NCBI GenBank assembly: GCA_030695925.1
Contig: JAUYOH010000139.1
Coordinates: forward strand, 15,142-79,141
Direction: 5' to 3'
DNA from: Candidatus Omnitrophota bacterium
Lineage (GTDB): Bacteria > Omnitrophota > Gorgyraeia > Pluralincolimonadales > Pluralincolimonadaceae
Length of the DNA: 64,000 nt
A program made the position numbers and the translations under genes. This document shows, in pieces, positions 8,236-62,087 of this stretch. The notes under the pieces were generated by a model. It was not told the origin of the DNA, searched no databases, and saw only the letters and a program-made list of their open reading frames with translations. Within the stretch, counting starts at the first letter, position 1. Each line of letters begins with the position of its first letter.

Positions 8236-8258
8236 GATAGGTATACGCTGTCAACAAA

Positions 8259-35989: not shown

Positions 35990-36006
35990 AAATAAGGAGG
36001 AGAGGG

Positions 36007-43179: not shown

Positions 43180-44615
43180 CTTTTTTTACCTACCTGTACA
43201 TTTTCAAATCTCGCGGGGGATGCGCCGTGGCCTACGTGCATGACCTGTCCGGGTTCTCCCTTTCCGCAATTAGGTATACCGTGCAGTTTCCAGTATTTCG
43301 AGTTCGCGATGCCGCTGCAACTTGCCCAGAAGTCCGGCGTTATGCCTGTGTAAAAGGGATTTTTCAGGACATCGCCGATTTTTCCGTTCTTGATCTCCCA
43401 GCCTATTTCGGTGCCGAATTGAAAATTAAGCCTCATATCATCTATGGACCATGTTTTATTGGTCGCAAGCAAGATGCCGTCTTTCGTATCAGAGATAAGT
43501 TCTTCGAGGCTCGACTCTCCCGGTTCGAGATTTATATTCGTCATCCTTATCAGGGGAAGGGCGCTCCAGCTGGAAGCCCTCATCGCGCCGCTGGATCTTC
43601 CGCCTATCTTGTGCGCCGCCTCTCTCGAACTTAAGTATCCGACAAATATACCGTCTTTTATAATAGGTATCTTTTGCGCGACTACACCTTCGTCATCGAA
43701 AGCGAAAGTACCCACACCGCCCTCGCAGGTGGCATCCGCCGTGATATTGATTAATTTTGAGCCATATCTGAATTTTCCGAGTTTATCCGAACTAAGAAAA
43801 GTCGCTCCCGCGAAACTTACCTCATCGCCAAAGGCCCTGTCCAATTCAGCCGCGTGGCCGCATGACTCGTGTATCTGGAGCGCTAACTGTGTCGTATCTA
43901 GGATCACTGTTGTTATCTTTGAGGGACATTCCTTCGCGTGAAGCAGGCTTACGGCTTCTTTCTTTACTCCCTCCGCGCCGCCTACGAGGTCGAGCTCCGT
44001 TATATATTCGTATCCTCTTTGAGCGATATCGCTGTGCGCCATAGGGTATGACCTGCGCTGGACCTCATCGCCCGAGACGGCTATCGCTTCTACATAGCCG
44101 CCGCTTTCTATGAACTCCTGCTCTATCTCCGAGCCCTCGGTAGAGAGAAAGAACTTGTATGTACGGTAGAAATCGAGCGCGGCAACGGCAGTCTTTATAT
44201 TCTGGTGGGATTTTAAGGCCTGGGATGCCGACATCAGGTAGTCTAGTTTTTTATGTATGGGGACTTCAAAAGGATCTGTCTCGCATCTGGATTTAAACGA
44301 CGCCTTGACCGCCTCGACTGGCGCTAAGTAGATCTTTGTCTTGTTTATAGTCGCGGTCGCCTCGGCTATCGCCATCGCGCGCTGCGCGGTCTTCTCGACA
44401 TTATTCTTGGAAAGGTCAGCGCAGGAAGAGAATCCCCAGCTTCCGCGCTTTAAGATGCGCACCGAGAAACCCTCGTCGGTCTTGGAGGCGATATTTTCCA
44501 CCTCGTTATTCTTTACGACAAGGGACTCGTGGCTGCGTCTTACGAAACGGATATCCGCGTAGTCGACCTCTTTGCTTTTAAGATATTTTATACCGTTCCT
44601 GAGGGCTTCTTTCAT
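43176..44615 (-). CDS. tldD: TldD-family metalloprotease
   Basis: 479 aa. HESCGH (HExxxH) metal site within QIHESCGHAAELD. C-terminal GxC...G barrel region typical of TldD. Confidence 0.8.
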   Translation of the reverse strand: MKEALRNGIKYLKSKEVDYADIRFVRRSHESLVVKNNEVENIASKTDEGFSVRILKRGSWGFSSCADLSKNNVEKTAQRAMAIAEATATINKTKIYLAPVEAVKASFKSRCETDPFEVPIHKKLDYLMSASQALKSHQNIKTAVAALDFYRTYKFFLSTEGSEIEQEFIESGGYVEAIAVSGDEVQRRSYPMAHSDIAQRGYEYITELDLVGGAEGVKKEAVSLLHAKECPSKITTVILDTTQLALQIHESCGHAAELDRAFGDEVSFAGATFLSSDKLGKFRYGSKLINITADATCEGGVGTFAFDDEGVVAQKIPIIKDGIFVGYLSSREAAHKIGGRSSGAMRASSWSALPLIRMTNINLEPGESSLEELISDTKDGILLATNKTWSIDDMRLNFQFGTEIGWEIKNGKIGDVLKNPFYTGITPDFWASCSGIANSKYWKLHGIPNCGKGEPGQVMHVGHGASPARFENVQVGKKR

Positions 44616-44655
44616 GGGTATCAGAGGTTAATTATACCATCTCGCCTTTAAAACA

Positions 44656-44664
44656 TGCTATAAT
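44656..44664 (+). promoter_or_regulatory. Extended -10 promoter (TGcTATAAT) predicting a near-leaderless mRNA
   Basis: TGCTATAAT at 44656-44664. The ATG of the 471-aa ORF lies 11 nt after the -10, and no SD lies between them. Confidence 0.4.
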
Positions 44665-44674
44665 CTTTTTCAAG

Positions 44675-46090
44675 ATGAAAAATGAGATAAAAACGATACA
44701 GGAAAAGCTAAACAAAGTTTTCTTAAGGCTTCCCAAATCGACAGTACGGCAGTTGTTCGACAAGTTAAGGGAGGAATCGCTGAGGCGCGGCGTGGTCCTG
44801 TACGACGAGGAAGGTGAGCCGCAGGTGGTGGCTATCTGTGTCCGTCCTTGGATCATGACAAAACAGCAGAAGAGGTTCTTCCACGGGCTCTGCCTCAATA
44901 TGAAGAAAGCGCTTCAGAGGATGGCCCAGATATATTATAACGAACCGCAGGCAAGGCAGATCCTCACGCTTACCCCGCGTGAAGAGGAGTGGTTCTTCGA
45001 GATATACGGGGCGAGCACCCGCCGCATCCAGAGACACCAGACCGTCTTTGACAGGGTCGACGCCAACGCCGTATTTTCCGTAGCCAATTGGAAGAATTCC
45101 TTTATATTCATCGAGACTAACGCCATCGGTGTTGGCGGGGTCCATTATATCCCCGCCGCGACGTATATATTGGAAGACATAGTATTTCCTGTCATCAGGG
45201 ACAGCATAAGCAATATAAGACTGGAAAGGCAGGACGATATCCGTGAGCTCCTGTTTGAGACCATAATGAATCACGCGAAGAAGATCGGCCGTCCCCGTCC
45301 CAATGTCATTTTTATGGAGGACCAGCGCTCGCTCGACGGCTCGGACGAGCACGCGTTCGCCGCTATTTACCTAAGGACGAAAGGAGCGACCGCTTTCGCG
45401 ACCGACCCGAGGGAGCTATACCTTAAGGACGGCCAGATATACTTCAGGGATACGCCTGTCGATATAATCTACAGGGACTGTTCGATAGACGAATTGCAAG
45501 AGATGGAAGACCAAGGCGAAAAAGTAGACATTTTGAAAGAGGCGTTTAAGAAGAATCAGGTCGTCTCTTCCATATCCGGTGAATTTGACCACAAGAGCAC
45601 GTTCGAGATATTTACCGACGATGATTATAGCGGTTATTTTACGCCGATACAAAGAAGGTTGTTCAAAAAATATGTCGCCTGGACGCGCCTGATCTGGGAC
45701 AGGAAGACCGAATGCCCGACAGGAAGGCGTGTCGATCTTTTGAAATATATAGAGACGCATAAGGACGGCCTTGTCATAAAACCGAACAGGACCTACGGCG
45801 GCAAAGACGTCGTTATAGGACGATTCGTAAAGGCCGCCGAGTGGAAGAAGGCGCTGGAAGAAGCGATAAAAGATGAACGCTCCTGTGTCGTACAGGAATA
45901 CGCCGAGGTCAAGGAAGAAAAGTTTCCTGTCCTTAACGAAGACGGGACGGTCACGATGGAAAAAAATTATGAGATCTCAGGATTCACCTCATCCGAGTCG
46001 GGGCTCGCCGTTATGGCGAGATGCTCGATAGACCCGGTCGTGAATATCTCGCGAAGAGGCGGCATCATCCCCGTTGTCCTTGTAGAATAA
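44675..46090 (+). CDS. Uncharacterised protein, ATP-grasp-like (possibly circularly permuted amidoligase type)
   Basis: 471 aa. C-terminal LVIKPNRTYGGKDVVIGRF...CVVQEY resembles the ATP-grasp nucleotide loop. The family name was not verified. Confidence 0.35.
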   Translation: MKNEIKTIQEKLNKVFLRLPKSTVRQLFDKLREESLRRGVVLYDEEGEPQVVAICVRPWIMTKQQKRFFHGLCLNMKKALQRMAQIYYNEPQARQILTLTPREEEWFFEIYGASTRRIQRHQTVFDRVDANAVFSVANWKNSFIFIETNAIGVGGVHYIPAATYILEDIVFPVIRDSISNIRLERQDDIRELLFETIMNHAKKIGRPRPNVIFMEDQRSLDGSDEHAFAAIYLRTKGATAFATDPRELYLKDGQIYFRDTPVDIIYRDCSIDELQEMEDQGEKVDILKEAFKKNQVVSSISGEFDHKSTFEIFTDDDYSGYFTPIQRRLFKKYVAWTRLIWDRKTECPTGRRVDLLKYIETHKDGLVIKPNRTYGGKDVVIGRFVKAAEWKKALEEAIKDERSCVVQEYAEVKEEKFPVLNEDGTVTMEKNYEISGFTSSESGLAVMARCSIDPVVNISRRGGIIPVVLVE

Positions 46091-46097
46091 TTTACCC

Positions 46098-46126
46098 TTG
46101 ACAGAGCCCTAAAGGTGAGGTATATT
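46098..46126 (+). promoter_or_regulatory. Sigma-70 promoter of the LacI-family regulator operon
   Basis: TTGACA (46098-46103), 17-nt spacer, TATATT (46121-46126). Confidence 0.55.
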
Positions 46127-46159
46127 TGAAGCACTTCAATTTTTATTGAAAGATTTCAA
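46126..46159. promoter_or_regulatory. Two LacI-type palindromic operators (O1 TTGAAGCACTTCAA, O2 TTGAAAGATTTCAA)
   Basis: O1 at 46126-46139 overlaps the -10; O2 is at 46146-46159. Centres are 20 bp apart. The motif recurs at 48425, 49116 and 49168. Confidence 0.6.
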
Positions 46160-46182
46160 TTATATGTCAAAGTGACTGCCAT

Positions 46183-47226
46183 ATGAAGATAACTCTCGAA
46201 CAAGTTGCCAAGAAATCAAATCTTTCCACCGGAACGGTCTCGATGGCCTTAAGGAACGATCCGCGGATCAAAGAATCGACCCGGAAATACGTCCTTGAGC
46301 TGGCTCAAAGATTAAATTATATTCCTTCCGCTTTAGGGAGGTCATTAGCTACTCAGAAGACCCAGATACTCGGGCTTACGATAACAGATATAACAAATCC
46401 CTTCTTTACAGAGGTCTTCAAGGGGGTCGAGGACATGGCCGTGAAGAATGGCTACAGCGTCATCCTCTCAAACACCGAATACGACCTTAAGCGCGAGACC
46501 GAGATTTTAAGGATATTTCTGGAAGGACGGGTTGACGGCCTGGTTATAGACCCGGTCGAAAACAACACTGATTTCGCGATGCTAAAGCAGCTCAAGAGGA
46601 TGGGCATACCATTTGTCTTATTAAGAAAGTTAAAGGGCCTGGAGAAAGAATATGACTATGTGATGGCCGATGATAAGAAAGGAGCCATTATTTTGACCCA
46701 GCATCTTATTAATATGGGCCATAGGCGCATAGGATATATAGGAAGCACGCAATGCGGAGTGACCGACCACGACAGGTTTTTGGGCTACAAACAGGCCCTC
46801 GCAAAAGCAGGCATAGAATTTGACGCGGGTTTAGTCACCAGCCATGATAGTTTTAGTTTATCCGAAGGCCTTAAGGTAGGCCGGGGACTGCTTCAGGCGA
46901 GAAAGGATATAGACGCTGTAGTCGCTTTCAATGACCTTTTGGCCTTAGGTGTTATGGAGGCGGCGTATTCTTTGGGCCTGCGCGTCCCGGAAGATTTAGC
47001 CGTGGGCGGGTTCGACGATATTTATATAAGCGGTTTAAGTCCGGTGTCATTAACTACCATCGCCTTGCCGAAATACGAATTGGGAAGCCGGGCAACCGAA
47101 CTGCTTATAGATAAGATAGAGGCGAAAAGGTCCAAGCGCCCCGCTAAGACAAACCAGATAGTATTGGAACCGAAACTGGTCATAAGAAGGTCGTGTGGGC
47201 ATAAAGAAAAGGAGGAGCAGCGATGA
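46183..47226 (+). CDS. LacI/GalR-family transcriptional regulator
   Basis: 347 aa. N-terminal HTH (ITLEQVAKKSNLSTGTVSMALRNDPRIKESTRKYVLELAQRLNYIPS). Periplasmic-binding-protein-like core (AVVAFNDLLALGVMEA, LAVGGFDD). Confidence 0.85.
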   Translation: MKITLEQVAKKSNLSTGTVSMALRNDPRIKESTRKYVLELAQRLNYIPSALGRSLATQKTQILGLTITDITNPFFTEVFKGVEDMAVKNGYSVILSNTEYDLKRETEILRIFLEGRVDGLVIDPVENNTDFAMLKQLKRMGIPFVLLRKLKGLEKEYDYVMADDKKGAIILTQHLINMGHRRIGYIGSTQCGVTDHDRFLGYKQALAKAGIEFDAGLVTSHDSFSLSEGLKVGRGLLQARKDIDAVVAFNDLLALGVMEAAYSLGLRVPEDLAVGGFDDIYISGLSPVSLTTIALPKYELGSRATELLIDKIEAKRSKRPAKTNQIVLEPKLVIRRSCGHKEKEEQR

Positions 47227-47792
47227 AAAAAGTCACAGTCTTGTTTTTGATTTGCCTTGCGTCTGTGGCGGGATTAGTCTCGTTCGCGACGGCGGCGATG
47301 ATGCCGGATTATATCTATCTATTTGATAAGAATAAGCCGGACCTGACCAATTGGAGGGATAAATTTGAAGATAACGCCTCCTCCAATGTCAAGATATTTT
47401 TGGAAGACTCTCCAGAAGGCAAAGTAGCGGTTATCGAGGGGCTTTCCGATAAGGAAAGTTTTGGCTGCGTCTATCAGGATGTTACCGTTGACGTAAATAA
47501 ATATCCTGTCCTGGAGATAGACGTCAATTCCGCTTCCAAGATGTGGTATATAATAATAGGTTGCGAAAACCTGAAAGACAAAGAGGTGGATTTTGACAAC
47601 AACAAGTTCGTAAGATTGCAATTTGATACCGACAGAGTCGGAAAGCATACTTATAATCTCAAGGCCTTGACCGGACTTTCCGGCGAACAGACCTTTCGCC
47701 TAAAAGTGGGCGTTGCCACGGGCGATGTCTATATTCCGGCGGTAGGGATAAAGATGGTATTCAGGAGCCTTAAGCTTGTCGGGACAAAATAG
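47223..47792 (+). CDS. Secreted protein of unknown function, paralogue family member 1
   Basis: 189 aa, ATGA overlap with the lacI-family gene. Signal peptide ...VSFATAA. Clearly homologous to residues ~30-175 of the 1578-aa protein (SFGCVYQDVTVDVNKYPVLEIDV vs SFGCIHKKLDVDFERYSYLEIEV; GKHTYNL vs GKFRYNL). Confidence 0.7.
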   Translation: MKKVTVLFLICLASVAGLVSFATAAMMPDYIYLFDKNKPDLTNWRDKFEDNASSNVKIFLEDSPEGKVAVIEGLSDKESFGCVYQDVTVDVNKYPVLEIDVNSASKMWYIIIGCENLKDKEVDFDNNKFVRLQFDTDRVGKHTYNLKALTGLSGEQTFRLKVGVATGDVYIPAVGIKMVFRSLKLVGTK

Positions 47793-47817
47793 AAACCAAG
47801 GAAAGGAAACGGGATAA

Positions 47818-48387
47818 ATGAAGATATCGATTGTAATCGCGATATCGCTTCTTCTGGTTGTCTTTGCGGTTGTCTCTTACGCCGATTCGATCGGATGGGG
47901 TTATGAGGATTGGGGGGCGGCTAATGCGGCACCCATAGGATGGGGCACATGGAATACAACTTTTGTCTCCAATGGGTTCGGACAAGACGGTCAAAGTACG
48001 GCTACCGTAACGGTAGGCAATATCAAGCCTTGGGGTAAGGTATTTTATTTTACGGGAGTTTCATCAAAAGCCATAGCCGGCGGCTTTAAATATCTCTATA
48101 TCAACACCTATGATATTAAGGGAGATATTCAGGTGGCTATTTCCGGCCCCAGCGATGCTGATTTTTATGATGTTACACCTCACTTGGTAAGCGGCAAGAC
48201 AGGTGATCCCCTTAAAAAGAGGGTATATTATCCCGGGCCTTATGTATTTGACTTGTCTGGTTGGAAGCCATTGCGTACCCACGCCAATGTATCGATTCAA
48301 CTGATCGGCGAGGGAGGGAAGGGAAAAAGCTTCACGATAAACCGTGTCTTCATCTCTGACTACAACCCTATGACTCAACCCAAATAA
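47818..48387 (+). CDS. Secreted protein of unknown function, paralogue family member 2
   Basis: 189 aa with signal peptide ...VVSYA. Weaker but co-linear similarity to member 1 (PWGKVFYFTGV...FKYLYINTYD...IQVAIS; SFTINRVFIS). Confidence 0.65.
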   Translation: MKISIVIAISLLLVVFAVVSYADSIGWGYEDWGAANAAPIGWGTWNTTFVSNGFGQDGQSTATVTVGNIKPWGKVFYFTGVSSKAIAGGFKYLYINTYDIKGDIQVAISGPSDADFYDVTPHLVSGKTGDPLKKRVYYPGPYVFDLSGWKPLRTHANVSIQLIGEGGKGKSFTINRVFISDYNPMTQPK

Positions 48388-48397
48388 TAAATTTCTA

Positions 48398-48438
48398 TTG
48401 ACAGAGAGATTTTTTGTAGTATAATTGAAGCGGTTCAA
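48398..48438 (+). promoter_or_regulatory. Sigma-70 promoter plus operator O3 (TTGAAGCGGTTCAA)
   Basis: TTGACA (48398-48403), 16-nt spacer, TATAAT (48420-48425). The operator at 48425-48438 overlaps the -10. Confidence 0.6.
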
Positions 48439-48462
48439 AAGTAAAAGGAGGTGGAACTGGCG

Positions 48463-49035
48463 ATGGGAAAGTTTTTATTGTTTTTAGCGGTAGTGGCCGG
48501 ACTTGTTTTATCGACTCAGATCGCCGGAGCGGAGACGATCTGGTCCGAGGATTTCTCGGATGTCAGCGATTGGGGCGTTGTTTTTGATCCGGGCGGCGGT
48601 TCAGTCATCAAGCGTTCTAATGGTCTGGATAGCATGCAGTCGGACAGCAATCCGGCCCATATGGCAGCGCTATATGTTGACAAAGAGCATGCCCAAGCTG
48701 CTTTTTCACCCAATCCGGTAGGTTCCAACTTTATTCCATTTGATCCGGCAAAGAAATCGGAATACACTCTAAAATGGAAAGTCGACAGACTTACAACGTC
48801 AGTCAGCTGGGATATCGCCATAGACGAATTTAACGCAAATAAAAAATATATAAACACTATTTGGAGCATATGTACCGCGAACAATGAGGCAGGAAAAGAA
48901 TTTTCAAAGAATTTGGGTAATAAGGGGTGGAGCGCAAGCACCAAATACGTAATACCAAAGATAAGTCTTCACAGCGGTGATGCCGCCCAGACAGCCTATC
49001 TATCTTATATGAGCCTAGAGAAGGCTTCAAAGTAA
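48463..49035 (+). CDS. Secreted protein of unknown function, paralogue family member 3
   Basis: ATG at 48463 (MGKFLLFLAVVAGLVLSTQIAGA). The track GTG at 48451 lies inside the AAGGAGG RBS. Mature N-terminus ETIWSEDFSDVSDWG parallels member 4 (ATVWTADFSNVTGWS). Confidence 0.65.
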   Translation: MGKFLLFLAVVAGLVLSTQIAGAETIWSEDFSDVSDWGVVFDPGGGSVIKRSNGLDSMQSDSNPAHMAALYVDKEHAQAAFSPNPVGSNFIPFDPAKKSEYTLKWKVDRLTTSVSWDIAIDEFNANKKYINTIWSICTANNEAGKEFSKNLGNKGWSASTKYVIPKISLHSGDAAQTAYLSYMSLEKASK

Positions 49036-49081
49036 CAAGCGGTATTGCAATAATATCCTCAATAAAAGCAAAAGATTACCA

Positions 49082-49181
49082 TTGACAAGTACCTAGGATA
49101 TGGTACAATCTAATATTGAAACGCTTCAAATAATAAAACAGCTTGCTTATTTTTTTGGCCTACCTAATTGAAGCGATTCAA
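49082..49181 (+). promoter_or_regulatory. Sigma-70 promoter plus operators O4 (TTGAAACGCTTCAA) and O5 (TTGAAGCGATTCAA)
   Basis: TTGACA (49082-49087), 16-nt spacer, TACAAT (49104-49109). O4 at 49116-49129, O5 at 49168-49181, both upstream of the PEP-CTERM gene. Confidence 0.6.
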
Positions 49182-49216
49182 AACCAATTAAACTAAATCA
49201 GAGAGGGGGTGAAACA

Positions 49217-49777
49217 ATGAAAAAATTACTTATACTCGCAGTGATAGCGCTTGGCATTCTAGTCGTAAATCCCTCTATGGCTTCAGCAACCGTTTGGACA
49301 GCGGATTTTAGCAACGTAACTGGTTGGTCACCTGCCGAAGGAGCGACTTTTACCAGCGATGGTTCAGCGGCTAAATTAGAGGATACTGCCGATGGTTCAG
49401 GTGTGGCAACTTGGGCTGGGACTCACGTTGATTATCAGGCCGGTGACCTTATCACTTTGGTCGTGTCCGGTGTTCATAATGCTCCTGTTAACGATACCTA
49501 TTGGAGGCTTAGCATCCATCAGTTTGACATCGCCAATGTGTATCTAGGTGAATTGGAATTGTTGCCTTACTCGCATTCTACAGGCACCTTTTCCAGTAGT
49601 TTTGCTGGTCTCAATGCCAGTACCGTTAAGTATGATCCGTCACTGAGAATTAGTACAATCAGTGGGACAGGCGATGCTACGTTTGACAACTTATCTGTTG
49701 TTCCGGAACCGGCAAGCCTGCTTCTTCTTGGAAGTGGTTTGTTAGGTCTAATTAGCGTTTCTCGCAAGAGAAAATAA
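49217..49777 (+). CDS. PEP-CTERM-anchored secreted protein, paralogue family member 4
   Basis: 186 aa with signal peptide ...PSMASA. C-terminal VPEP-ASLLLLGSGLLGLISV-SRKRK (nt 49700-49774) is a textbook PEP-CTERM sorting signal. Confidence 0.75.
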   Translation: MKKLLILAVIALGILVVNPSMASATVWTADFSNVTGWSPAEGATFTSDGSAAKLEDTADGSGVATWAGTHVDYQAGDLITLVVSGVHNAPVNDTYWRLSIHQFDIANVYLGELELLPYSHSTGTFSSSFAGLNASTVKYDPSLRISTISGTGDATFDNLSVVPEPASLLLLGSGLLGLISVSRKRK

Positions 49778-49792
49778 GCAGTTGTTTTAATG

Positions 49793-49844
49793 AGACAGGA
49801 GTTAGAAAAAGGATAAATCCCGATTTTGACTCCTGTCTTTTTTA
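49793..49844 (+). terminator. Rho-independent terminator after the PEP-CTERM gene
   Basis: AGACAGGAGT (49793-49802) pairs with ACTCCTGTCT (49829-49838). The loop is large (26 nt). Followed by TTTTTT. Confidence 0.55.
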
Positions 49845-49859
49845 ATCTGACATTTGCCC

Positions 49860-49888
49860 TTGACGAAAATCGAAATTCCTGATAAAGT
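49860..49888 (+). promoter_or_regulatory. Candidate sigma-70 promoter of the giant-protein operon
   Basis: TTGACG (49860-49865), 17-nt spacer, TAAAGT (49883-49888). No TTGAA-N4-TTCAA operator is seen here. Confidence 0.35.
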
Positions 49889-49924
49889 TAAGTTGTTTTT
49901 TCCGCCTCGATGAAGGAGGAGTAA

Positions 49925-52900
49925 TTGAGAATAAAGATCGTCCTTTTGGTATTAATAACGCTGAGTTTTTGCGGCATCAGCGGCATTGTTAATGCCGAAG
50001 ACAAAGAATCCTACCTCGATGTCTTTACCCCCGAAAAATCCGATCTGGGAACGTGGGCCTACGGCTGGGCGAACGAACCCGATGAAATCAATGCAGAGGT
50101 CGTCAACGGCGAGGCAGTCATTACCGGCGAGAGGCAAGACCAGAGTTTCGGTTGTATCCACAAGAAATTAGATGTCGATTTTGAGAGGTATTCTTATTTA
50201 GAGATCGAAGTGACGAGGGTCACTGACAGCTGGTATGTTATCTTCAGCAGCCCGGAATTCGAGAACGGGTTTGCGAGGATACAATCCGATACCAAAAAGA
50301 CCGGAAAATTCAGGTATAACCTGTGGGATTATCCGCAGCTTAAGGGGCAGGCGGAGTTTGATATCCAAATCGGAGTCAGTGCCCCGAATAAAAAGGGGCA
50401 AAAGGGCGCGCAAGTCGTCTTTAAGAACCTGCGTTTTATCGACGTCGGCGCAAAGAGGCCTCCGAGAGGCCCTAAGCTGGCCAAGCATGACCTGCCTTCG
50501 CCCATACCGCTAAGCAAGACCGAAAGGCCGCAGCCCGTAATCTCCAAGATCGCCCCTTTGCCATCGAAGGCTAAAGAGGCAGAACCCGTTGCGCCCGCCG
50601 TAAAAAAAAATATCTTTGAGGTCTTCGCAAGAGAAGAATCGCCTGTAAATCTAACATCTTCCGCGCCGGTTTTCGATGATACGGATAAAGACACAATAAC
50701 TATCGAGAACGATTGTTATAAGATAGTCTTTAGCAAGAAGAACGGCGCGTTAGTCGCAATAGAAGACAAGATAAATAGTGGAACGGTCTGCGCGGGTTCA
50801 GTCGGTGGGCAGTTATGGCGCCTTAATTTTTATAAAAGAAAGAGCATAACCAATAAAGATTTCAGCGCCGGTTCCCAAGAGAGGCCTTTTGAGTATAAAT
50901 GGCAGAAATCAAAAGGAGAGCTCTCGTTCTTATATCAGGACAAGACATCAGGTTTCCTGCTTAAGATAAAGGCACTCGCCTCAAAAAAAAACTATCTTGA
51001 CTTCCAGGTAGAGATAGAGAACGCCTACGAAGAACCCGCCATACTCCTTAACTTTCCCGAAGGCCTCAGCTTTAAACTCGAAAAATTAAGACAAGCCATC
51101 TTCCCTTTCAGGGGAGGCCTGGCCTTAAAGCCAGGTTTTTTTTTAGAGAGACGCTACATATCTGAATCCCAATATCTCTTTAGCGATTACTTTGCCGCAG
51201 AATTCGAGAAGAGTAATTTCTCTTTATATACCATCCAAAATCCGTCGCGCTGGACAGAAGCAACAATGTCGGTCGGTTATGATTCGTATCAGGGCGGTGT
51301 CGGATTCTATACCTACGCTCAGGCTACTTATATCCAGAAATCCAACAAGAAGACCGGTTCTTCAGGTTATTGGTCCAGCCCCGTCATAAGGATGCGTATC
51401 GCCGAGCCGGTTAAAGAGAGTATCCGGCATTATGCTCAAGATAACGGCTTCGACGAGATACCCGACCTTAATAAAAGGATCGACAAGGGCCTTTTTGATA
51501 AACTCTCCAAATCGGTCTTATTGAAATTCGACTTCAGCTGGATAGGCCAAAAATTCAGCGAGGTATCTGAATTCATCAAGACGCTTCCTTCGCCTACCCT
51601 TGTGCATATGGTTACTTTCTGGGAAAAAGGATTTGATAAGAACTATCCCGATTACCTGCCGCCCAATAAACAGTTCGGGACGCAGGAAGACCTAAAAAAT
51701 TTAGTCGCGGTGGCGCACGGCGAAGGACATCTGGTCATGCCCTACACTAACCCGACATGGTGGAACGAGAGCAAGACATTAGAGGCGCTTGGGGCAGAGA
51801 AGATCGCTGTAATAAAATTAGACGGGCACATCCATGATGAATACTATTGGGGGAAGAACTGGGGGGTAATCACAAGTCCGCATAATCCCGAAGTCATTAA
51901 AAGAACGCAACAGACCGTGCGGGAATTTAAGTATGACATACCCTGCGATATATTGTTTGAGGACCAGTTAGGAGCGAGGCCATGGCAATATGACCTGAAT
52001 CCGAAGGCAAGGGACCCGGTCCTTTACAAACAGGGGCTTATAGATTTCGCGAAGAGGGACTCAAAACAGATCCCTGTAATGTGCGAGGGCGGGTTTGACG
52101 GGCTTATGCCCTACGTTATCGCCTTCAGCGATATGGCGGTTAATAACTCGCTTCCGCCGGACAAGGTATTTAATAACTGGTACGGCGAGGGGAACTGGGA
52201 GACATTCCCTTACGCCTTATACGTAGCGCACGATAAGAACGGGTTTTATCAGCATAACCTCGCCCACGAAGTCTTTACGGACGCCAAGGACAAACTTATG
52301 TGGAATGTCGCATACGGGCATAATTTCACGCAGGGCTATTGGCCGAAGGAGTGGGAGAAGAGCCAGAAGAGATGGTTCTATATAGATGACGCTTTTCAGA
52401 AGAGCGTGGCTTCGCGGTATTTCGGCAAGAAATTGACGGATTTCCAAAGTCTTGACGGCAGAGTCACATTTAGCCGTTTCGAGGATATCGCCATAGTGGC
52501 GAATCATTCAAAGTCTAAGCCCTATCGTATAGAAAATTATATTATACCTCCGGAAGGGTTTCTCGCCGAGTCCGAGGGCGGCAATCTGGTCGCCGGAATG
52601 TTCAAGGTATTCAACGACGACCTATTGGCGGGCGAGCATTATATCATCGTAGAAAACCTGCCCAATAAAATAATAGTCAAGCAGCCGGATCCGAAGAGCA
52701 CTTTAATAAACGTTAAAAGGCCCGTTGATTGGAAAGAGGCCTCCGGGATAAAAATATCCTGCGCCGAAGGAGCCGTTCCCGCTGCTGTGACCGAAGACAA
52801 AATAACATTTCTTTATAACAGCCAAGAAATAGACAGCGAATATCTCATAGAATACGCCTCTCCGAAAGAAGACATAGAGTTAACTATATTGCCTGAGAAA

Positions 52901-54661
52901 AGATATGCCGGCTTAGGCGAGAACCTTAAGGTCAGTCTTGCCGCCAAGAACTTAAGCGGCGCATCGCTTAAAGAAGGAAAATTGGCTTTAAGCGTATGGC
53001 TTGTCCATGCCGCAGGGCCGGTTCCGGATATGTGGGCAGGTTATCTGGGGGATAGCGGGAACACCACCCAAATGAGCGAGATTTTTTATTCGCTTGACCC
53101 CGGCTCTCAGGTTGCCGCGGATTTCACTGTTCCGCTTCCGGAAAAGATAAAAGAGGGGGACGTGGTCTGGCTTAAGGGAGAGATAATCTACGGCCAGGAT
53201 TCCGCGAGAAAGATGAAGCAGATCCAGACGAAGGTCAATATAATACCAAAGGCGATAGAGATTCAGGTTGAGCCGATAGAGATCCTCATCTATCCCGATG
53301 TCAAGAGACAGATCGAGATCAGGATAAAGAATAACGAGGCCGGATCCCTTAAGGGAGAAATTAAGCTCGAGACCGATTTACCCAAAGGCGCGGCAGGCAA
53401 GGAGACTATACCCTTTTCACTTGAGCCGCTGGAAGAAAAGAGCATTTTTACGAACTTACTTGTCATGGCATCTGAAGCAGGCAAGGATTATAAGTTGACC
53501 GCTAAAATAAGATTGAATAATGTGGACTATTCTTCCGAAGCCTGCTCTATCAAAGCCAGAGAGGCGATACCCGAGATAGACTTGGGCCCGCAAAATGTCC
53601 TCGTCCTGGGCAAGAAACAGTCTTTATCTGTCGGTATAAAGGCTCACAAGGAAGTGCCGCTTAACGGCTGGTTGACTCTTAATATACCTCAGGGCTGGGA
53701 GATAACACCGCAGAAGCGGCTCTTGGAATTAGCTCCCGGCGAATATAAAAAGTTTGATTTTATCGTTACCCCTAATTCAAAAGGAGAGACTGATATAACC
53801 GCGGCCATAACCGTCTCAGGAGGAGCCGTTATCAAAGCGAAGGAACCGTTTAAGGTGATCGCCGGGAATAGAGAGGCGGCTTTGGTTGAATCAGACATCA
53901 ATGGGGACGGTTATATGGATATTGTGTTGGCGAACGCTTTAATAGAAGCCCAGGCGACAGAGGCAGTTGGCGGCAGGATCCTTTCTTTCTTTGTCAAGGA
54001 GACAGGTAACGATGAACTATACTCCGCGTATTCACAACTGCCGAAAGCAGGACAGCCGAAGGACTGGGTCGAATACGGGGGGATAAACGACTGGTTCCCT
54101 GAAGGATGGCCGGGTGAGGTCTGGGGAAATAAGTGGCAATATGAAGTAAGAGAAAGGGGACCCGAAGAGGTCTCGGTCAGAATGTGGACCGAGACGGAGA
54201 ATAAATTATATATCGAAAGGACTATGACATTACGGGCTGACTCCTCATCTTTAAAGTTAAGATACAAGATCAAGAACAACTCGGATAAAGAACAAGGGTT
54301 CATATGGGCGAACCATCCCGATCTGGCATGTGGCCCGTTCGACGCGACCGAGGAGAACCAAGCAGTGATTCCCGTCAAAGGCAAGGGCCTTGTAACACAG
54401 GATTACGGCAAGAGTATGAGCAAGACCGAGTATATACCGGACGGAGATCGGATCTTGGGATATGATAAGGCCAGCAACGAATATTTTATGCAGGAGTTTG
54501 ATAAGGATTTAATTGATAAAGTCGGCGTCTGGGAAGGCATCGGTTTTTATACTATGGAGTTGATATTTAAACCCCGGAAACTGAGGCCTCAGGAGGAATT
54601 TGACTTCGAAGTAAGATATAGCGCTGGGAAAGAAGACCCGCAAGATTTATTGAAAAGATGA
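49925..54661 (+). CDS. 1578-aa secreted multidomain protein (family module + glycoside-hydrolase-like core + beta-sandwich repeats + mutarotase-like C-terminus)
   Basis: TTG start 5 nt after AAGGAGG, with the signal peptide beginning at residue 1 (MRIKIVLLVLITLSFCGISGIVNA). Its N-module is homologous to the 47223 ORF and is followed by a Pro-rich linker. The central region is paralogous to the 62088 ORF. Downstream are NEW3/CARDB-like repeats (LNIPQGWEITP...LAPGE...FDFIVTP) and a DINGDGYMD motif. Confidence 0.8.
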   Translation: MRIKIVLLVLITLSFCGISGIVNAEDKESYLDVFTPEKSDLGTWAYGWANEPDEINAEVVNGEAVITGERQDQSFGCIHKKLDVDFERYSYLEIEVTRVTDSWYVIFSSPEFENGFARIQSDTKKTGKFRYNLWDYPQLKGQAEFDIQIGVSAPNKKGQKGAQVVFKNLRFIDVGAKRPPRGPKLAKHDLPSPIPLSKTERPQPVISKIAPLPSKAKEAEPVAPAVKKNIFEVFAREESPVNLTSSAPVFDDTDKDTITIENDCYKIVFSKKNGALVAIEDKINSGTVCAGSVGGQLWRLNFYKRKSITNKDFSAGSQERPFEYKWQKSKGELSFLYQDKTSGFLLKIKALASKKNYLDFQVEIENAYEEPAILLNFPEGLSFKLEKLRQAIFPFRGGLALKPGFFLERRYISESQYLFSDYFAAEFEKSNFSLYTIQNPSRWTEATMSVGYDSYQGGVGFYTYAQATYIQKSNKKTGSSGYWSSPVIRMRIAEPVKESIRHYAQDNGFDEIPDLNKRIDKGLFDKLSKSVLLKFDFSWIGQKFSEVSEFIKTLPSPTLVHMVTFWEKGFDKNYPDYLPPNKQFGTQEDLKNLVAVAHGEGHLVMPYTNPTWWNESKTLEALGAEKIAVIKLDGHIHDEYYWGKNWGVITSPHNPEVIKRTQQTVREFKYDIPCDILFEDQLGARPWQYDLNPKARDPVLYKQGLIDFAKRDSKQIPVMCEGGFDGLMPYVIAFSDMAVNNSLPPDKVFNNWYGEGNWETFPYALYVAHDKNGFYQHNLAHEVFTDAKDKLMWNVAYGHNFTQGYWPKEWEKSQKRWFYIDDAFQKSVASRYFGKKLTDFQSLDGRVTFSRFEDIAIVANHSKSKPYRIENYIIPPEGFLAESEGGNLVAGMFKVFNDDLLAGEHYIIVENLPNKIIVKQPDPKSTLINVKRPVDWKEASGIKISCAEGAVPAAVTEDKITFLYNSQEIDSEYLIEYASPKEDIELTILPEKRYAGLGENLKVSLAAKNLSGASLKEGKLALSVWLVHAAGPVPDMWAGYLGDSGNTTQMSEIFYSLDPGSQVAADFTVPLPEKIKEGDVVWLKGEIIYGQDSARKMKQIQTKVNIIPKAIEIQVEPIEILIYPDVKRQIEIRIKNNEAGSLKGEIKLETDLPKGAAGKETIPFSLEPLEEKSIFTNLLVMASEAGKDYKLTAKIRLNNVDYSSEACSIKAREAIPEIDLGPQNVLVLGKKQSLSVGIKAHKEVPLNGWLTLNIPQGWEITPQKRLLELAPGEYKKFDFIVTPNSKGETDITAAITVSGGAVIKAKEPFKVIAGNREAALVESDINGDGYMDIVLANALIEAQATEAVGGRILSFFVKETGNDELYSAYSQLPKAGQPKDWVEYGGINDWFPEGWPGEVWGNKWQYEVRERGPEEVSVRMWTETENKLYIERTMTLRADSSSLKLRYKIKNNSDKEQGFIWANHPDLACGPFDATEENQAVIPVKGKGLVTQDYGKSMSKTEYIPDGDRILGYDKASNEYFMQEFDKDLIDKVGVWEGIGFYTMELIFKPRKLRPQEEFDFEVRYSAGKEDPQDLLKR

Positions 54662-55674
54662 AGCTAAAAAAATACGCTGACAACCCCATCCTGAAACCTG
54701 CGAAGGAAGGAAACTGGGAGAGGCATGCCGTATGTAATCCCGGGGCCTATTACGACAAGGGCAAGGTCTACATGCTCTACAGGGCTTCGGCTGAGACGGA
54801 CATATACCGCATCTATATGGGCCTCGCCATAAGCGAGGACGGTCTTCATTTCAAGAGAGCGTCTAACAAGCCCATCTATACTCCGACATATCTGTTTGAA
54901 GCCGGGGGCGTTGAGGACCCCCGTATCGTAAAATTCGGCGGCTACTATTATATTACATACGCCTGCAGGGCCGTTCCCTATACGATGTTTGTCATGGGCA
55001 AAGGGCCTGAGTATTCCGAGAACGCGCCAAAGAGCCTGAAGGAGAACCTGACCCGCACAGGCCTTTTGCGCACAAAGGATTTCAGGAATTTCGAATGTTT
55101 GGGCGCCATCTCCCGGGATGACGTAGATGACCGCGATGTAGTGATATTTCCGGAAAAAATTAAGGGCAAATATGTAATGCTCCACAGGCCCGCAGAATGG
55201 ATTGGGCCGAAATATGGTTGCGCAAAACCAAGCATATGGATGACTTTTTCCAACTCGTTGACCAGATGGGGAGAAAAGAGCCTGATCTTGGCTCAGCCTG
55301 ACCCCGAAATCCCCTGGCAGGAGAAGAAGATCGGTGCAAGCACTCCTCCTATCAAGACAAAGTACGGATGGCTGCTTATGTATCACGGCGTTGAGGGTGA
55401 CAAACCCGGACGGTATTACCGGCAAGGAGTTATGATGCTGGACCTCAAAGACCCGCGCAAGATCGTCTCCCGGCCGAGGGATTTCATACTGGAACCAACC
55501 GAGCCCTTCGAGAAAGAGGGAGTGGAAGAGAACGTGGTCTTTGCCGTAGGTAACGTCGTCATCGGCAAAGAGTATTTTTGCTATTACGGCGGCGCGGACA
55601 AAGTCATATGCGCGGCCACGGCGAAACTGCAAGACCTCGTGGATTTCGCGATGTCAGCCCCGGTTAAGAGATGA
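54658..55674 (+). CDS. GH130-family glycoside phosphorylase (beta-mannoside phosphorylase-like)
   Basis: 338 aa, ATGA overlap with the giant ORF. NPGAYYDKGKVYMLYRA, GVEDPRIVKFGGYYYITY and DRDVVIFPEKIKGKYVMLHRP match GH130/DUF377 signatures. Confidence 0.8.
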   Translation: MKLKKYADNPILKPAKEGNWERHAVCNPGAYYDKGKVYMLYRASAETDIYRIYMGLAISEDGLHFKRASNKPIYTPTYLFEAGGVEDPRIVKFGGYYYITYACRAVPYTMFVMGKGPEYSENAPKSLKENLTRTGLLRTKDFRNFECLGAISRDDVDDRDVVIFPEKIKGKYVMLHRPAEWIGPKYGCAKPSIWMTFSNSLTRWGEKSLILAQPDPEIPWQEKKIGASTPPIKTKYGWLLMYHGVEGDKPGRYYRQGVMMLDLKDPRKIVSRPRDFILEPTEPFEKEGVEENVVFAVGNVVIGKEYFCYYGGADKVICAATAKLQDLVDFAMSAPVKR

Positions 55675-56333
55675 GCGTTAAAGGTGCTATCTTTGATTTA
55701 GACGGTGTCGTCGTCAATACCGCGAAGTTCCATTATATGGGATGGAAGAAACTGGCCGATGAGATCGGTGCCCCTTTTGATGAAGTAAAGAACGAGAAAT
55801 TAAAGGGGCTAAGCCGGAGAGATTCCCTCTTGGCCCTTCTCGGTTACACGCCGGATGAAAAGAAAATCGACGAATTATGTGAACAGAAAAATAAGTATTA
55901 TCTGGAATTCGTCAGTCGCATAGACCGCAGCCAGATACTTCCCGGTGCTTTAGAGTTGATCGAAGAGATACATAAGGCAAAAGATTGGAAACAAGCCCTT
56001 GCTTCTTCAAGTAAAAACGCGAGGACCGTTCTTAAAAAACTGGATATCGAAAAGTACTTCGATGCGGCTGTGGATGGGACGGAGACGAAGAAGACTAAAC
56101 CTGATCCCGAACTGTTCCTGAAAGCGGCATCACGGCTAGGGTTGACCTCTGATAATGTCGTTGTCTTTGAGGACGCCGAATCCGGCGTACGGGCAGCTAA
56201 GAGCGGCGGGATGCTGGTAGTCGGAGTCGGAGACAGAAAGATATTACACGAAGCCGACCTCGTCATAAAAGACCTCTCGGAGATCGATATCGCCGGAATC
56301 GAGAAATTGTTCAGAGAAAAAGGAAAAGCATAG
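55671..56333 (+). CDS. pgmB: Beta-phosphoglucomutase (HAD superfamily)
   Basis: 220 aa. DLDGVV nucleophile motif, KGLSRRDSL, KTKPDPELFL and EDAESGVRAAKSGGM. Immediately upstream of the GH65 gene. Confidence 0.85.
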   Translation: MSVKGAIFDLDGVVVNTAKFHYMGWKKLADEIGAPFDEVKNEKLKGLSRRDSLLALLGYTPDEKKIDELCEQKNKYYLEFVSRIDRSQILPGALELIEEIHKAKDWKQALASSSKNARTVLKKLDIEKYFDAAVDGTETKKTKPDPELFLKAASRLGLTSDNVVVFEDAESGVRAAKSGGMLVVGVGDRKILHEADLVIKDLSEIDIAGIEKLFREKGKA

Positions 56334-58619
56334 ATGTCTCGACAGGATTGGCTCATCGAGGAGAAGAAGTATTCGTCAAAGAAGGAGTTATACTGGGAGA
56401 CCATATTCGCCCTCTCCAACGGCTATATGGCATCCAGAGGGGTCCTTGAAGAAAACCATTTTTGCCCGCAAGTAAAGTCATGTTTCGGCACTTATGTCGC
56501 TGGTATTTTTGATAAATATAGCGGGAACTATCAAGCCATCGTCAACCAGCCGGATTTTTTTAACACCGGAGTCTATGTCAACGGTGAATTGATGAATATG
56601 AACGAGGGCAAGTTCGAGAATTATACGCGGTATCTGGATATGTATGACGGCGTTCTTGTCCGTAAATTCATATGGACTAGCCCAAGGAAAAAGAAGACCG
56701 AGTTTGAGATCACTCGCTTCATCAGCAAGGCCGACGAACATCTCGCTGTTTTGCATTATAAGATAAGGCCTCTGAACTATAACGGAGAAATCAGGATTAA
56801 TAATGTTCTCGACGGGAATGTCACGAATATTGATTTCCATATCAGCGGTTATCAGCTCAGGGACGAAAAATACTATTTTATAGATGACAAGTATGAAGCC
56901 GGCGGCCTGCCCGACGGGGGATATCTGACCGTAAATACGAAGATGACACAGATGTCGGTCTGCGAGGCGTTCAGATGCGAGGTCCGCGAGAACGAAGAAA
57001 AGATTTCAGCAAAAATAAATAGCAAAACCCGTAAGCTTCTTCTGGATAACGATGTCCGGTTTAGGGCCAGTAAAGGGACATCCTATTCATTCCTGAAATT
57101 GATCGCCGTTTATTCTTCCAAGGACGGCGTCTCCGATTTAAGGCGTTCCTGCGCCAATAAATTGAAAGAAGCCTCATCAAAAGGATACGACCGGCTTTTG
57201 GCGGAACACGCCGGAAAATGGAACAAGATCTGGGATGTCAGCGACGTCAGGATCGAGGGCGATAAGAGAGACCAGAGAAACGTCAGGTTCAACATCTATC
57301 ACCTCATCCAGATGGGTAACAAGAAGAATCCCCGCGTTAATATCGGTTCCCGCGGCCTGACCAGCGAGATGCATTACGGTAATTGTTTTTGGGATACCGA
57401 ACTTTTCATAATGCCTTTCTTTATCTTTACCGACCCTGATACGGCCAAGGCATTGGTCAAATACCGTTACCTGACCCTGCCCGCGGCAAGAGAGAAAGCC
57501 AAGAGATTATTGTTTAAAGGCGCGATGTATCAATGGATGAGTTCATATCCCGGACACGAACAAGCCGATTATTGGGAATACGCCAATATCGCGGTCCATA
57601 TCGTCTCCGACGTCACCTTCGGCCTGATGAATTATTATTACGCGACCAACGATACGCGGCTTATGCTCGATTGCGGCCTGGAGATGCTTATCGAGACCGC
57701 GCGTTTTTGGGTAAGCCGTGTCGATTATAGCCCGATAAGGAAACGCTATGTCATGAATCTGGTGAAGGGGCCTAACGAATACGGGATCGTCAATAACAAC
57801 ACCTATACCAACTGGAACGCGCGCTGGAACCTCATTCAGGCCACGAAGATGGTTGAATGGGCAAGGAAGAACCATCCCGATAAGCTTAAGAAAGTCTCAC
57901 GAAAGATCAAGTTCGGCCTCAAAGAGACAAGGGACTGGACGAAGATCATCGATAATATATACATAAATTACGATAAGAAAAGAGACTTGTATATCGAGGA
58001 TGACCAGTTCCTTGAGAAGAGGCCGGTAGATATAAGGAAGATGAAACCGGGAAAAATCATAACTACGGAATTAGGTTACTCGTGGGACACTTTCCTCAGG
58101 CTTAAAATCGTCAAACAGGCCGATGTCTTGCTTCTGATGTATCTGCACAGGGAGAACTTCACGAGGAAACAGCTCTTGAACGCGTGGAAGTTTTATGAGC
58201 CGATGACTCTTCACGATTCTTCCTTGAGCTATAATACACATTCGATCATAGCCAACGAACTTGGAGACAAGAAAAAGAGTGACCTTTATTTCCAGCAGAC
58301 AGCGCGATTGGATTTGGAAGACGTGATGGCAAACACGTTCTTAGGCATACATTCCGCCAGCGCCGGAGGGACATGGCAGTGTGTGGTTCGTGGCTTTTGC
58401 GGGATGAGAATGGATATGGAGCATAACAGGATCGAATTTAACCCGAACCTGCCGGACCGATGGAAGAGAGTTAATTTTAAGATCGTTTATAAGGGCAATC
58501 TGTTCGCGGTCAGCGTTGAAGGGAAGAAGGTGCGGATAACGCATGAGAAGGCATATGAAAGTTCTTCTTCTGTCCGGGTCGAAGGTAATAAAATCATTGA
58601 CGGAAACCCAAGTTCTTGA
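56334..58619 (+). CDS. GH65-family disaccharide phosphorylase (maltose/kojibiose/trehalose/nigerose phosphorylase-like)
   Basis: 761 aa. WLIEEKKYSSKKELYWETIFALSNGYMASRG, FWDTELFIMPFF and KQADVLLLMYL match GH65 signatures. Confidence 0.85.
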   Translation: MSRQDWLIEEKKYSSKKELYWETIFALSNGYMASRGVLEENHFCPQVKSCFGTYVAGIFDKYSGNYQAIVNQPDFFNTGVYVNGELMNMNEGKFENYTRYLDMYDGVLVRKFIWTSPRKKKTEFEITRFISKADEHLAVLHYKIRPLNYNGEIRINNVLDGNVTNIDFHISGYQLRDEKYYFIDDKYEAGGLPDGGYLTVNTKMTQMSVCEAFRCEVRENEEKISAKINSKTRKLLLDNDVRFRASKGTSYSFLKLIAVYSSKDGVSDLRRSCANKLKEASSKGYDRLLAEHAGKWNKIWDVSDVRIEGDKRDQRNVRFNIYHLIQMGNKKNPRVNIGSRGLTSEMHYGNCFWDTELFIMPFFIFTDPDTAKALVKYRYLTLPAAREKAKRLLFKGAMYQWMSSYPGHEQADYWEYANIAVHIVSDVTFGLMNYYYATNDTRLMLDCGLEMLIETARFWVSRVDYSPIRKRYVMNLVKGPNEYGIVNNNTYTNWNARWNLIQATKMVEWARKNHPDKLKKVSRKIKFGLKETRDWTKIIDNIYINYDKKRDLYIEDDQFLEKRPVDIRKMKPGKIITTELGYSWDTFLRLKIVKQADVLLLMYLHRENFTRKQLLNAWKFYEPMTLHDSSLSYNTHSIIANELGDKKKSDLYFQQTARLDLEDVMANTFLGIHSASAGGTWQCVVRGFCGMRMDMEHNRIEFNPNLPDRWKRVNFKIVYKGNLFAVSVEGKKVRITHEKAYESSSSVRVEGNKIIDGNPSS

Positions 58620-58631
58620 TAAAGTTAAATT

Positions 58632-60925: not shown

Positions 60926-60931
60926 GTTCTT

Positions 60932-62083: not shown

Positions 62084-62087
62084 GACA

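Follow-up and report, generated by a model that had tools for sequence, protein, structure and literature searches.

What do four short secreted proteins do when they are encoded between a LacI-type repressor and an operon for sugar breakdown and uptake? We sought to answer this question for a locus on contig JAUYOH010000139.1 of an Omnitrophota bacterium, contained in a 64,000-nucleotide stretch (hereafter, the window) of chromosomal DNA of ~48% GC, in which housekeeping genes including glutamate synthase, glutamine synthetases and NAD synthase are also found. The repressor gene, lacI, is followed by the genes for the small proteins S1 to S4, and then by the gene for a large secreted enzyme, termed here the giant, which heads an operon for cytoplasmic enzymes and an ABC importer (Table 1). 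The evidence firmly supports a glycan-utilisation locus in which the secreted enzyme is accompanied by accessory secreted modules that have a functional link to it. In addition, we consider it probable that this is a LacI-regulated locus whose new accessory proteins bind glycans, in functional analogy to the surface glycan-binding proteins (SGBPs) of Sus systems. As judged from the genes, the familiar component would be an ABC-transporter/phosphorylase sugar locus, and the novel one a set of Sus-SGBP-like accessory proteins from undescribed families, some of them exosortase-sorted.

The small open reading frames (ORFs) are genuine genes, as their dN/dS values in comparison with orthologues from the related Omnitrophota locus L002 (0.15 for S1, 0.10 for S2 and 0.22 for S3) reveal purifying selection, bearing out the sequence-only reading of this DNA, which had depended on their being conserved. 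They evolve somewhat faster than their neighbours, for which the same comparison yields 0.07 (LacI), 0.11 (giant) and 0.06 (GH130). S1 is also 100% identical to a hypothetical protein from a Candidatus Omnitrophota metagenome-assembled genome (MAG), locus tag Q8R05_07410. Sec-type signal peptides are present on S1-S4 and on the giant, and absent from GH130, beta-phosphoglucomutase (beta-PGM), GH65 and the second DUF6259 protein.

An all-against-all BLAST comparison covering the window and four related contigs, complemented by profile comparison, defined three sequence families: A, composed of S1 and the N-terminal module of the giant; B, composed of S3 and S4; and C, composed of S2 and its orthologues. 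S1 matches the giant N-terminus with 29% identity over 185 aa (E 3e-21), and free 183-aa proteins from L001 and L003 belong to the same family, being nearest to the module of the giant (37-39% identity, E 1e-36). S3 and S4 are bridged by a PEP-CTERM protein from L002 (E 8e-24 to S3), and S4 is 50% identical over 164 aa to the N-terminal module of the L001 giant (E 2e-46). The profiles of A and B are collinear but only weakly similar (hhalign E 2.4e-4, probability 44%), those of C and B align through the PEP-CTERM tail alone, and C yields no match to A. Treatment of S1-S4 as one family was rejected, since BLAST and hhalign uphold only the S1/giant N-module and S3/S4 pairings. Of the four paralogous secreted modules initially proposed, all four retain their secretion signals, but they constitute three families rather than a single paralogous set; likewise, the giant does carry at its N-terminus a module found among the small proteins, but only that of family A, not of B or C. 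No Pfam or NCBIfam model matches families A, B or C, and scans of S1-S3 gave no match; comparison of the A and B profiles with PDB chain sequences yielded nothing significant, the best hit being carbohydrate-binding module (CBM) family CBM32 at E 0.12 for B. We found no description of these modules, or of DUF6259, in the literature.

The nature of the modules is suggested by AlphaFold2 models of S1 (family A) and S3 (family B, with an alignment of 42 sequences). The S1 model (pLDDT 82.7) is a jelly-roll beta-sandwich, and the S3 model (pLDDT 89.6) is an all-beta sandwich. In Foldseek comparisons with PDB, the best matches to both are mostly CBMs: CBM11, 4, 22, 16 and 86 for S1, and CBM61, 4, 16, 22, 27 and 11, as well as the sugar-binding domain of Fbs1, for S3, with the two lists overlapping and also including CBM6. 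The E-values range from 1e-6 to 1e-3, and the TM-scores from about 0.45 to 0.6. On the basis of these models, families A and B appear to fall in the CBM-type jelly-roll fold class, but in no named family, and all three module families may be regarded as candidates for new CBM families. Aromatic positions are conserved in both, namely W44, W108, Y109 and Y144 in A, and W27, F31 and W37 in B.

The domain context of the modules is of the same kind. An exhaustive HMMER search with the family-A profile returned 149 representative clusters (71 below 1e-10), many of them with 2-5 tandem copies or inside proteins of 1000-4800 aa. Among the 38 family-A proteins scanned, nine have DUF6259 as a partner, and others are combined with F5/8-type C, GH5, rhamnosidase six-hairpin, GxGYxYP or SLH domains, or with Por secretion tails. 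Family B comprises 43 clusters, one of them from Kiritimatiellia, with PEP-CTERM tails on most, and family C comprises 8, its distant members having PEP-CTERM-like tails. Pattern scans of genome and metagenome contigs added only the L001 contig and one 2-kb fragment. Overall, the modules are found as free proteins, with a PEP-CTERM tag, in tandem arrays or as parts of enzymes, and the free and fused states are swapped between close relatives: the type fused to the giant in the window is the free 183-aa protein in L001 and L003, and the S4 type forms the N-terminus of the L001 giant. Beta-sandwich models and glycosidase fusions agree with the definition of a CBM as a discrete fold in or beside carbohydrate-active enzymes. 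Taken together, the predicted fold, the CBM-like domain behaviour and the genomic context would make glycan binding the most economical reading of what these modules do.

The region containing the small genes looks like a site of cassette-like turnover, because the order of S2 and S3 is swapped between the window and L002, the PEP-CTERM protein S4 is only 32% identical to its L002 counterpart, with the neighbouring proteins being 66-93% identical, and the nearest relative of S4 is the giant N-terminus of another genome. The swap of S2-type and S3-type genes involves positions 47818-49777 of the window and 10692-12687 of L002, two loci that are otherwise collinear.

The giant consists of a signal peptide, the family-A module (residues ~25-175), a Pro-rich linker, a beta-sandwich with a DUF6259/GH129-like TIM-barrel core (~255-940), and a C-terminal part (~1100-1578) with Ig-like NEW3 repeats, an FG-GAP motif and a mutarotase-like block. 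The core matches DUF6259 with 40 bits, and over ~110 residues it matches the barrel of the GH129 alpha-N-acetylgalactosaminidase NagBb (5wzn) at E 0.12 as a single sequence and E 0.003 as a five-sequence profile, with the match centred on a W..G.D..YPDYLP motif. It holds invariant acidic residues. The C-terminal ~475 residues share 36% identity (E 2e-93) with the C-terminal end of a GH99/71-like enzyme from an Elusimicrobiota MAG (L010). This block, with its NEW3 repeats, FG-GAP motif and mutarotase/DUF4380-like part, spans positions 53210-54661 of the window, 13400-14820 of L010 and 5700-7160 of L004, at 35-36% identity. Since it is shared with GH99/71-like enzymes, two different catalytic cores would be carried on one common scaffold in the same kind of locus.

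Every gene from lacI to the cytoplasmic DUF6259 gene (46183-64000) is on the plus strand. ATGA overlaps connect lacI to S1, the giant gene to GH130, GH130 to beta-PGM, and SBP (substrate-binding protein) to the first permease gene, and the beta-PGM and GH65 genes abut; these junctions, together with the family matches, confirm the coupling of the giant to GH130, beta-PGM, GH65, SBP and two permeases recognised earlier. What had been overlooked is the cytoplasmic DUF6259 gene, which begins five bases past permease 2, making the enzyme/transport operon longer than first described; its product is a distant intracellular counterpart of the giant's core. In L001, its orthologue also follows the permeases.

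GH130 is nearest in PDB to beta-1,2-oligomannan and beta-1,2-mannobiose phosphorylases (9fj8, E 8e-57; 7fip, E 2e-49). GH65 matches the N, central and C domain models (PF03636, PF03632 and PF03633), with kojibiose phosphorylase 3wiq as its nearest PDB entry (E 1e-135), and beta-PGM scores 218 bits with TIGR01990 (cutoff 189); thus, the three GH65 domains and the beta-PGM that define a GH65 phosphorylase pathway are all present. The presence of a dedicated beta-PGM implies formation of beta-glucose-1-phosphate, and we infer from these family assignments that the substrate may be a glycan yielding both alpha-glucosides and beta-mannosides.

The regulator combines a LacI-type helix-turn-helix (PF00356, 40.3 bits, cutoff 27) with a periplasmic-binding-protein-like effector domain (PF13377, PF00532 and PF13407, all exceeding their cutoffs), as do members of the LacI/GalR family. 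Exact TTGAAnnnnTTCAA palindromes occur five times in the 64 kb, all within 46126-49181, with 0.10 expected by chance, and none of 100 shuffles contained five. Each site is located at, or shortly 3′ of, the -10 box of one of three near-consensus sigma-70 promoters (at 46098, 48398 and 49082), which are the three best sigma-70 matches in the region; two sites are found ahead of lacI, one ahead of S3 and two ahead of S4. At the lacI promoter, the -35 and -10 boxes and both palindromes are kept in four relatives, and in L002, L003 and L004 the palindromes occupy the same positions, with these elements conserved and the spacers drifting. A site equivalent to O3 precedes the S3 orthologue in L002, where the promoter/operator footprint of S4 is conserved as well; one palindrome is found ahead of the giant gene in L003, and one ahead of a PEP-CTERM gene in L004 and in L001. 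The repressor with five operators described in the sequence-only reading is thus well founded at the level of sequence, given its Pfam domains and the number and conservation of its sites. The lacI gene is apparently autoregulated, and S2, having no promoter or operator of its own, is therefore probably co-transcribed with lacI and S1. A different palindrome, TGTTAAaacgtaTTAACA, follows a TTGACA/TATACT promoter ahead of the Elusimicrobiota LacI gene (L010, 8850-8900), where the regulator-operator pair appears to have diverged with the layout of the locus unchanged.

The same cannot be said of the enzymes, to which LacI control had also been extended. No operator was found ahead of the giant gene in the window or in L002, even with up to 3 mismatches allowed, and between it and S4 lies a strong terminator; the window thus does not show the enzyme operon to be controlled by LacI, and the earlier statement was too broad. 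The visible regulon would consist of lacI-S1-S2, S3 and S4, with the enzyme operon not visibly included. The non-coding segment between S4 and the giant gene (49778-49930) is 95% identical to that in L002, with the terminator sequence identical including its loop, in comparison with synonymous divergence of 0.6-1.6 in the flanking genes; strong constraint seems to act on the hairpin with its inner loop, on the weak promoter and on the 5′ leader. A search of positions 45900-50100 against Rfam yielded only sub-threshold miRNA noise.

With regard to location, the tail of S4 scores 28.8 bits with PF07589 (cutoff 20.7) and 24.9 bits with TIGR02595 (cutoff 16), and its C-terminal sequence VPEPASLLLLGSGLLGLISVSRKRK contains VPEPAS, a transmembrane helix and RKRK. 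Together with the N-terminal signal peptide, the PEP motif, transmembrane helix and basic tail constitute a full PEP-CTERM substrate signal, which is missing from S1-S3 and from the giant. The PEP-CTERM system is described as little characterised (PMC4960237), and, in the statement made there with reference to Haft 2006, its exosortase signal is thought to direct cell-surface localisation. Surface display would be supported for S4 only, on condition that an exosortase is provided; the cell-surface location initially assigned to the entire system was overstated, standing for S4 with its sorting signal and not for S1-S3 or the giant.

It is quite unlikely, in our view, that S1-S3 and the giant are instead periplasmic, with the small proteins acting there as helpers in the retention or sensing of oligosaccharides or in their delivery to the ABC binding protein, as could be imagined from the fact that these proteins bear Sec signal peptides only and that no secretion-system genes appear in the window. 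Such a role is at odds with the exosortase sorting signal carried by S4 and by most members of B and C, and with the SLH or Por secretion tails of some family-A proteins. We find it very unlikely that the small proteins are structural components of the envelope or matrix, of the floc or biofilm type, serving, for instance, in attachment to a particle or host and merely sharing a regulator with a sugar locus. The prevalence of PEP-CTERM proteins in families B and C, the faster evolution and turnover of the small genes between close relatives, the presence of the spirochaete flagellar sheath protein FlaA1 among the fold matches and the match of the S4 tail to the C-terminal part of the flocculation protein PepA model are all in line with it, but the PepA match covers the sorting tail only and is below the cutoff (44 bits vs 80), and the modules are repeatedly fused to glycosidases and repeatedly embedded in sugar loci across phyla.

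This last point is supported by the neighbourhoods in which the families are found. Co-occurrence across genomes, which had been put forward as a check on the whole proposal, is indeed observed: A, B and C recur beside LacI, a secreted DUF6259-like or GH99/71-like enzyme, GH130, GH65/HAD and sugar transporters in Omnitrophota (L001-L004), Elusimicrobiota (L010), Kiritimatiellia (L005) and the unassigned contigs L007, L008 and L011. L001 contains GH65, SBP, two permeases, cytoplasmic DUF6259, LacI, GH94, A, B, a second A-type protein (A′), a PEP-CTERM protein and a giant with a B-type N-module, and L004 contains LacI, A, B, a GH99/71-like enzyme, a PEP-CTERM cohesin-like protein and a dockerin protein. 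In L010, LacI is accompanied by a 666-aa protein of four A modules, the GH99/71-like enzyme, SBP, two permeases, HAD, GH65 and GH130. Pairs of B proteins are found beside LacI, GH99/71-like enzymes and GH130 in L005 and L007; three A proteins and a C protein with PEP-CTERM are found beside LacI and a GH99/71-F5/8 enzyme in L008; and in L011 a small A protein precedes an enzyme with two A modules and DUF6259, with GH65 nearby.

The L004 neighbourhood (7297-8679) contains an operator-preceded gene for a PEP-CTERM protein (7397-8035) with a sub-threshold match to cohesin (E 1e-3), followed by a gene for a protein with an above-cutoff dockerin domain (Pfam, 30 bits vs 22.9), which hints at cohesin-dockerin parts in Omnitrophota. 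Because this cohesin-like protein occupies, in relatives, the operator-controlled slot of S4, and because A and B modules are found at the N-termini of giants and interchanged with their free forms, one might think of docking or scaffold modules that bind proteins, with S4 and free S1-S3 holding the giant at the surface in a manner resembling cohesin and dockerin. We regard such docking as unlikely: no window protein scanned has a cohesin or dockerin match, with S1-S4 and the giant giving none in Pfam at E <= 0.1 and the only matches coming from L004; the top fold matches are mostly CBMs; and the tandem arrays of 2-5 copies, and the fusions to numerous unrelated glycosidases, are features typical for CBMs.

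In the SGBP-like arrangement that we favour, the secreted giant, with its DUF6259/GH129-like TIM-barrel core, would cut an external glycan, and the SBP-dependent ABC transporter would bring the oligosaccharides in, to be converted to sugar phosphates by the cytoplasmic DUF6259 protein, GH130 (beta-1,2-mannoside-phosphorylase type), GH65 (kojibiose-phosphorylase type) and beta-PGM. S1-S4, representing three undescribed families of ~160-aa modules, would most likely be non-catalytic glycan-binding accessory proteins, as suggested by fold, domain context and neighbourhood; the PEP-CTERM/exosortase signal of S4 would anchor it to the cell envelope, S1-S3 would be soluble, and the giant would bear its own S1-type module. 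LacI, bound at the TTGAAnnnnTTCAA sites, is predicted to keep lacI-S1-S2, S3 and S4 repressed in the absence of an inducer sugar, with the enzyme/transport operon presumably transcribed from its own operator-less promoter in this genome.

Several points weigh against this arrangement. The enzyme operon has no operator and lies behind a terminator, so that its co-regulation with the small genes is not visible here. No exosortase was found among the window genes scanned against Pfam, the remaining window ORFs not having been scanned, and S1-S3 and the giant, which bear no sorting signal, may remain in the periplasm. S2 has no detectable domain similarity to A or B. The TM-scores of the models are modest and the jelly-roll fold is generic, being matched also by Eph ligand-binding domains, phage tailspike domains and FlaA1, and the catalytic assignment of the giant depends on weak similarity, as the DUF6259 and GH129 scores given above attest.

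Comparison with known systems places the locus between several of them. Its core of LacI, SBP, two permeases, GH65 with beta-PGM, and GH130 fits the layout of a "Gram-positive polysaccharide utilization locus" gene for gene, from which it differs in the addition of operator-controlled small secreted module proteins, one of them exosortase-sorted, in its secreted enzyme from an uncharacterised (DUF6259-like) family, and in its Omnitrophota host. SGBPs of the SusE/SusF type from Bacteroidota resemble the small proteins in being non-catalytic proteins of CBM-like beta-sandwich fold (predicted in our case) in a substrate-regulated glycan locus, in adjoining a secreted endo-enzyme and an importer, and in varying in number and diverging rapidly between relatives. 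Unlike Sus, the locus imports by an ABC system, relies on cytoplasmic phosphorylases for breakdown, is regulated by LacI and uses a PEP-CTERM anchor (on S4 only) instead of a lipid, and the modules are unrelated in sequence to SusE/F. Neither SusC nor SusD is encoded among the genes at 46183-64000, all of which could be assigned, the transporter consisting of an SBP and two ABC permeases. With the cellulosome it shares the idea of surface tethering of enzymes and binding modules, to which the dockerin and cohesin-like PEP-CTERM proteins of L004 may be added, but the window lacks cohesin, dockerin and scaffoldin. The Sus-like or cellulosome-like layout of the sequence-only reading therefore stands as a functional analogy and not as membership in either system. 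The modules resemble the beta-sandwich CBMs of CAZy (CBM4, 11, 16, 22, 27, 61) in predicted fold, in size (~150-160 aa) and in their appended, tandem and free occurrence; they differ in being known here from sequence and models, with no Pfam or NCBIfam match and no significant one to PDB chains.

PEP-CTERM proteins are abundant, and their classic association is with exopolysaccharide biosynthesis loci. In contrast to that setting, the tagged proteins described here are found in loci of sugar catabolism governed by a LacI repressor, and their regular placement in such loci may provide a concrete role for some PEP-CTERM proteins. With the sorting system of Haft et al. (2006) they share the full signal of S4 and the PEP-CTERM tails of most members of families B and C. 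The occurrence of DUF6259 and GH99/71-like enzymes beside kojibiose-type and beta-1,2-mannoside-type phosphorylases may point to new enzyme specificities. To our knowledge, Omnitrophota have no cultured sugar-degrading representatives, and the locus offers a first view of how they may acquire glycans. More tentatively, and with rather less confidence than would be needed to prefer it, we can envisage a modular glycan-capture system shared by Omnitrophota, Elusimicrobiota and Kiritimatiellia, in which three undescribed module families occur interchangeably as free proteins, in tandem, at enzyme N-termini and in exosortase-anchored form. If so, PEP-CTERM/exosortase sorting would gain a catabolic role analogous to that of Sus SGBPs or of cellulosome anchoring, and in Omnitrophota the glycans so harvested might be those on the surface of other cells.

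Table 1. Genes and regulatory features of the locus, in window coordinates.
Feature	Position	Strand	Evidence or detail
lacI promoter TTGACA-17-TATATT	46098-46159	+	operators O1 46126-46139 and O2 46146-46159, centres 20 bp apart
LacI/GalR-family repressor	46183-47226	+	Pfam LacI HTH and Peripla_BP_1/3/4
S1, secreted 189-aa family-A module protein	47223-47792	+	BLAST, Sec-type signal peptide
S2, secreted 189-aa family-C protein	47818-48387	+	ORF, family profile, Sec-type signal peptide
S3 promoter TTGACA-16-TATAAT, 12/12	48398-48438	+	operator O3 48425-48438
S3, secreted 190-aa family-B module protein, without anchor	48463-49035	+	alternative GTG start at 48451
S4 promoter TTGACA-16-TACAAT	49082-49181	+	operators O4 49116-49129 and O5 49168-49181
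S4, 186-aa family-B module with C-terminal PEP-CTERM sorting signal	49217-49777	+	PF07589, TIGR02595
Intrinsic terminator after S4	49792-49843	+	16-bp stem with inner hairpin, then U-run; -26.1 kcal/mol, z -5.2
Weak promoter-like site TTGACG-17-TAAAGT for the enzyme operon	49860-49888	+	no LacI-type palindrome nearby
Giant, 1578-aa secreted multidomain enzyme	49925-54661	+	TTG start behind AAGGAGGAG
GH130, cytoplasmic	54658-55674	+	Pfam/NCBIfam scans, PDB comparison
Beta-PGM	55671-56333	+	TIGR01990
GH65, cytoplasmic	56334-58619	+	Pfam, PDB comparison
SBP of ABC sugar importer, lipoprotein (lipobox LGC)	58632-60044	+	Pfam
ABC permease 1	60041-60925	+	Pfam
ABC permease 2	60932-62083	+	Pfam
Cytoplasmic DUF6259 protein, without signal peptide	62088-64000, continues past window end	+	PF19773, 108 bits

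A second sugar cluster is located further upstream in the window (32343-39680) and includes a GH35/42-like enzyme, which matches an exo-beta-glucosaminidase model below the cutoff, a ROK-family regulator, an SBP and a GH94 cellobiose/chitobiose-phosphorylase-like enzyme. We rejected this GH94 as a part of the system, as in the window it belongs to the separate ROK/SBP/GH35-like cluster; in L001, unlike the window, GH94 sits between LacI and the small genes. The region just upstream of lacI (41830-46090) contains a TldD/PmbA pair and a circularly permuted ATP-grasp gene, which are syntenic in L002, L003 and L004.

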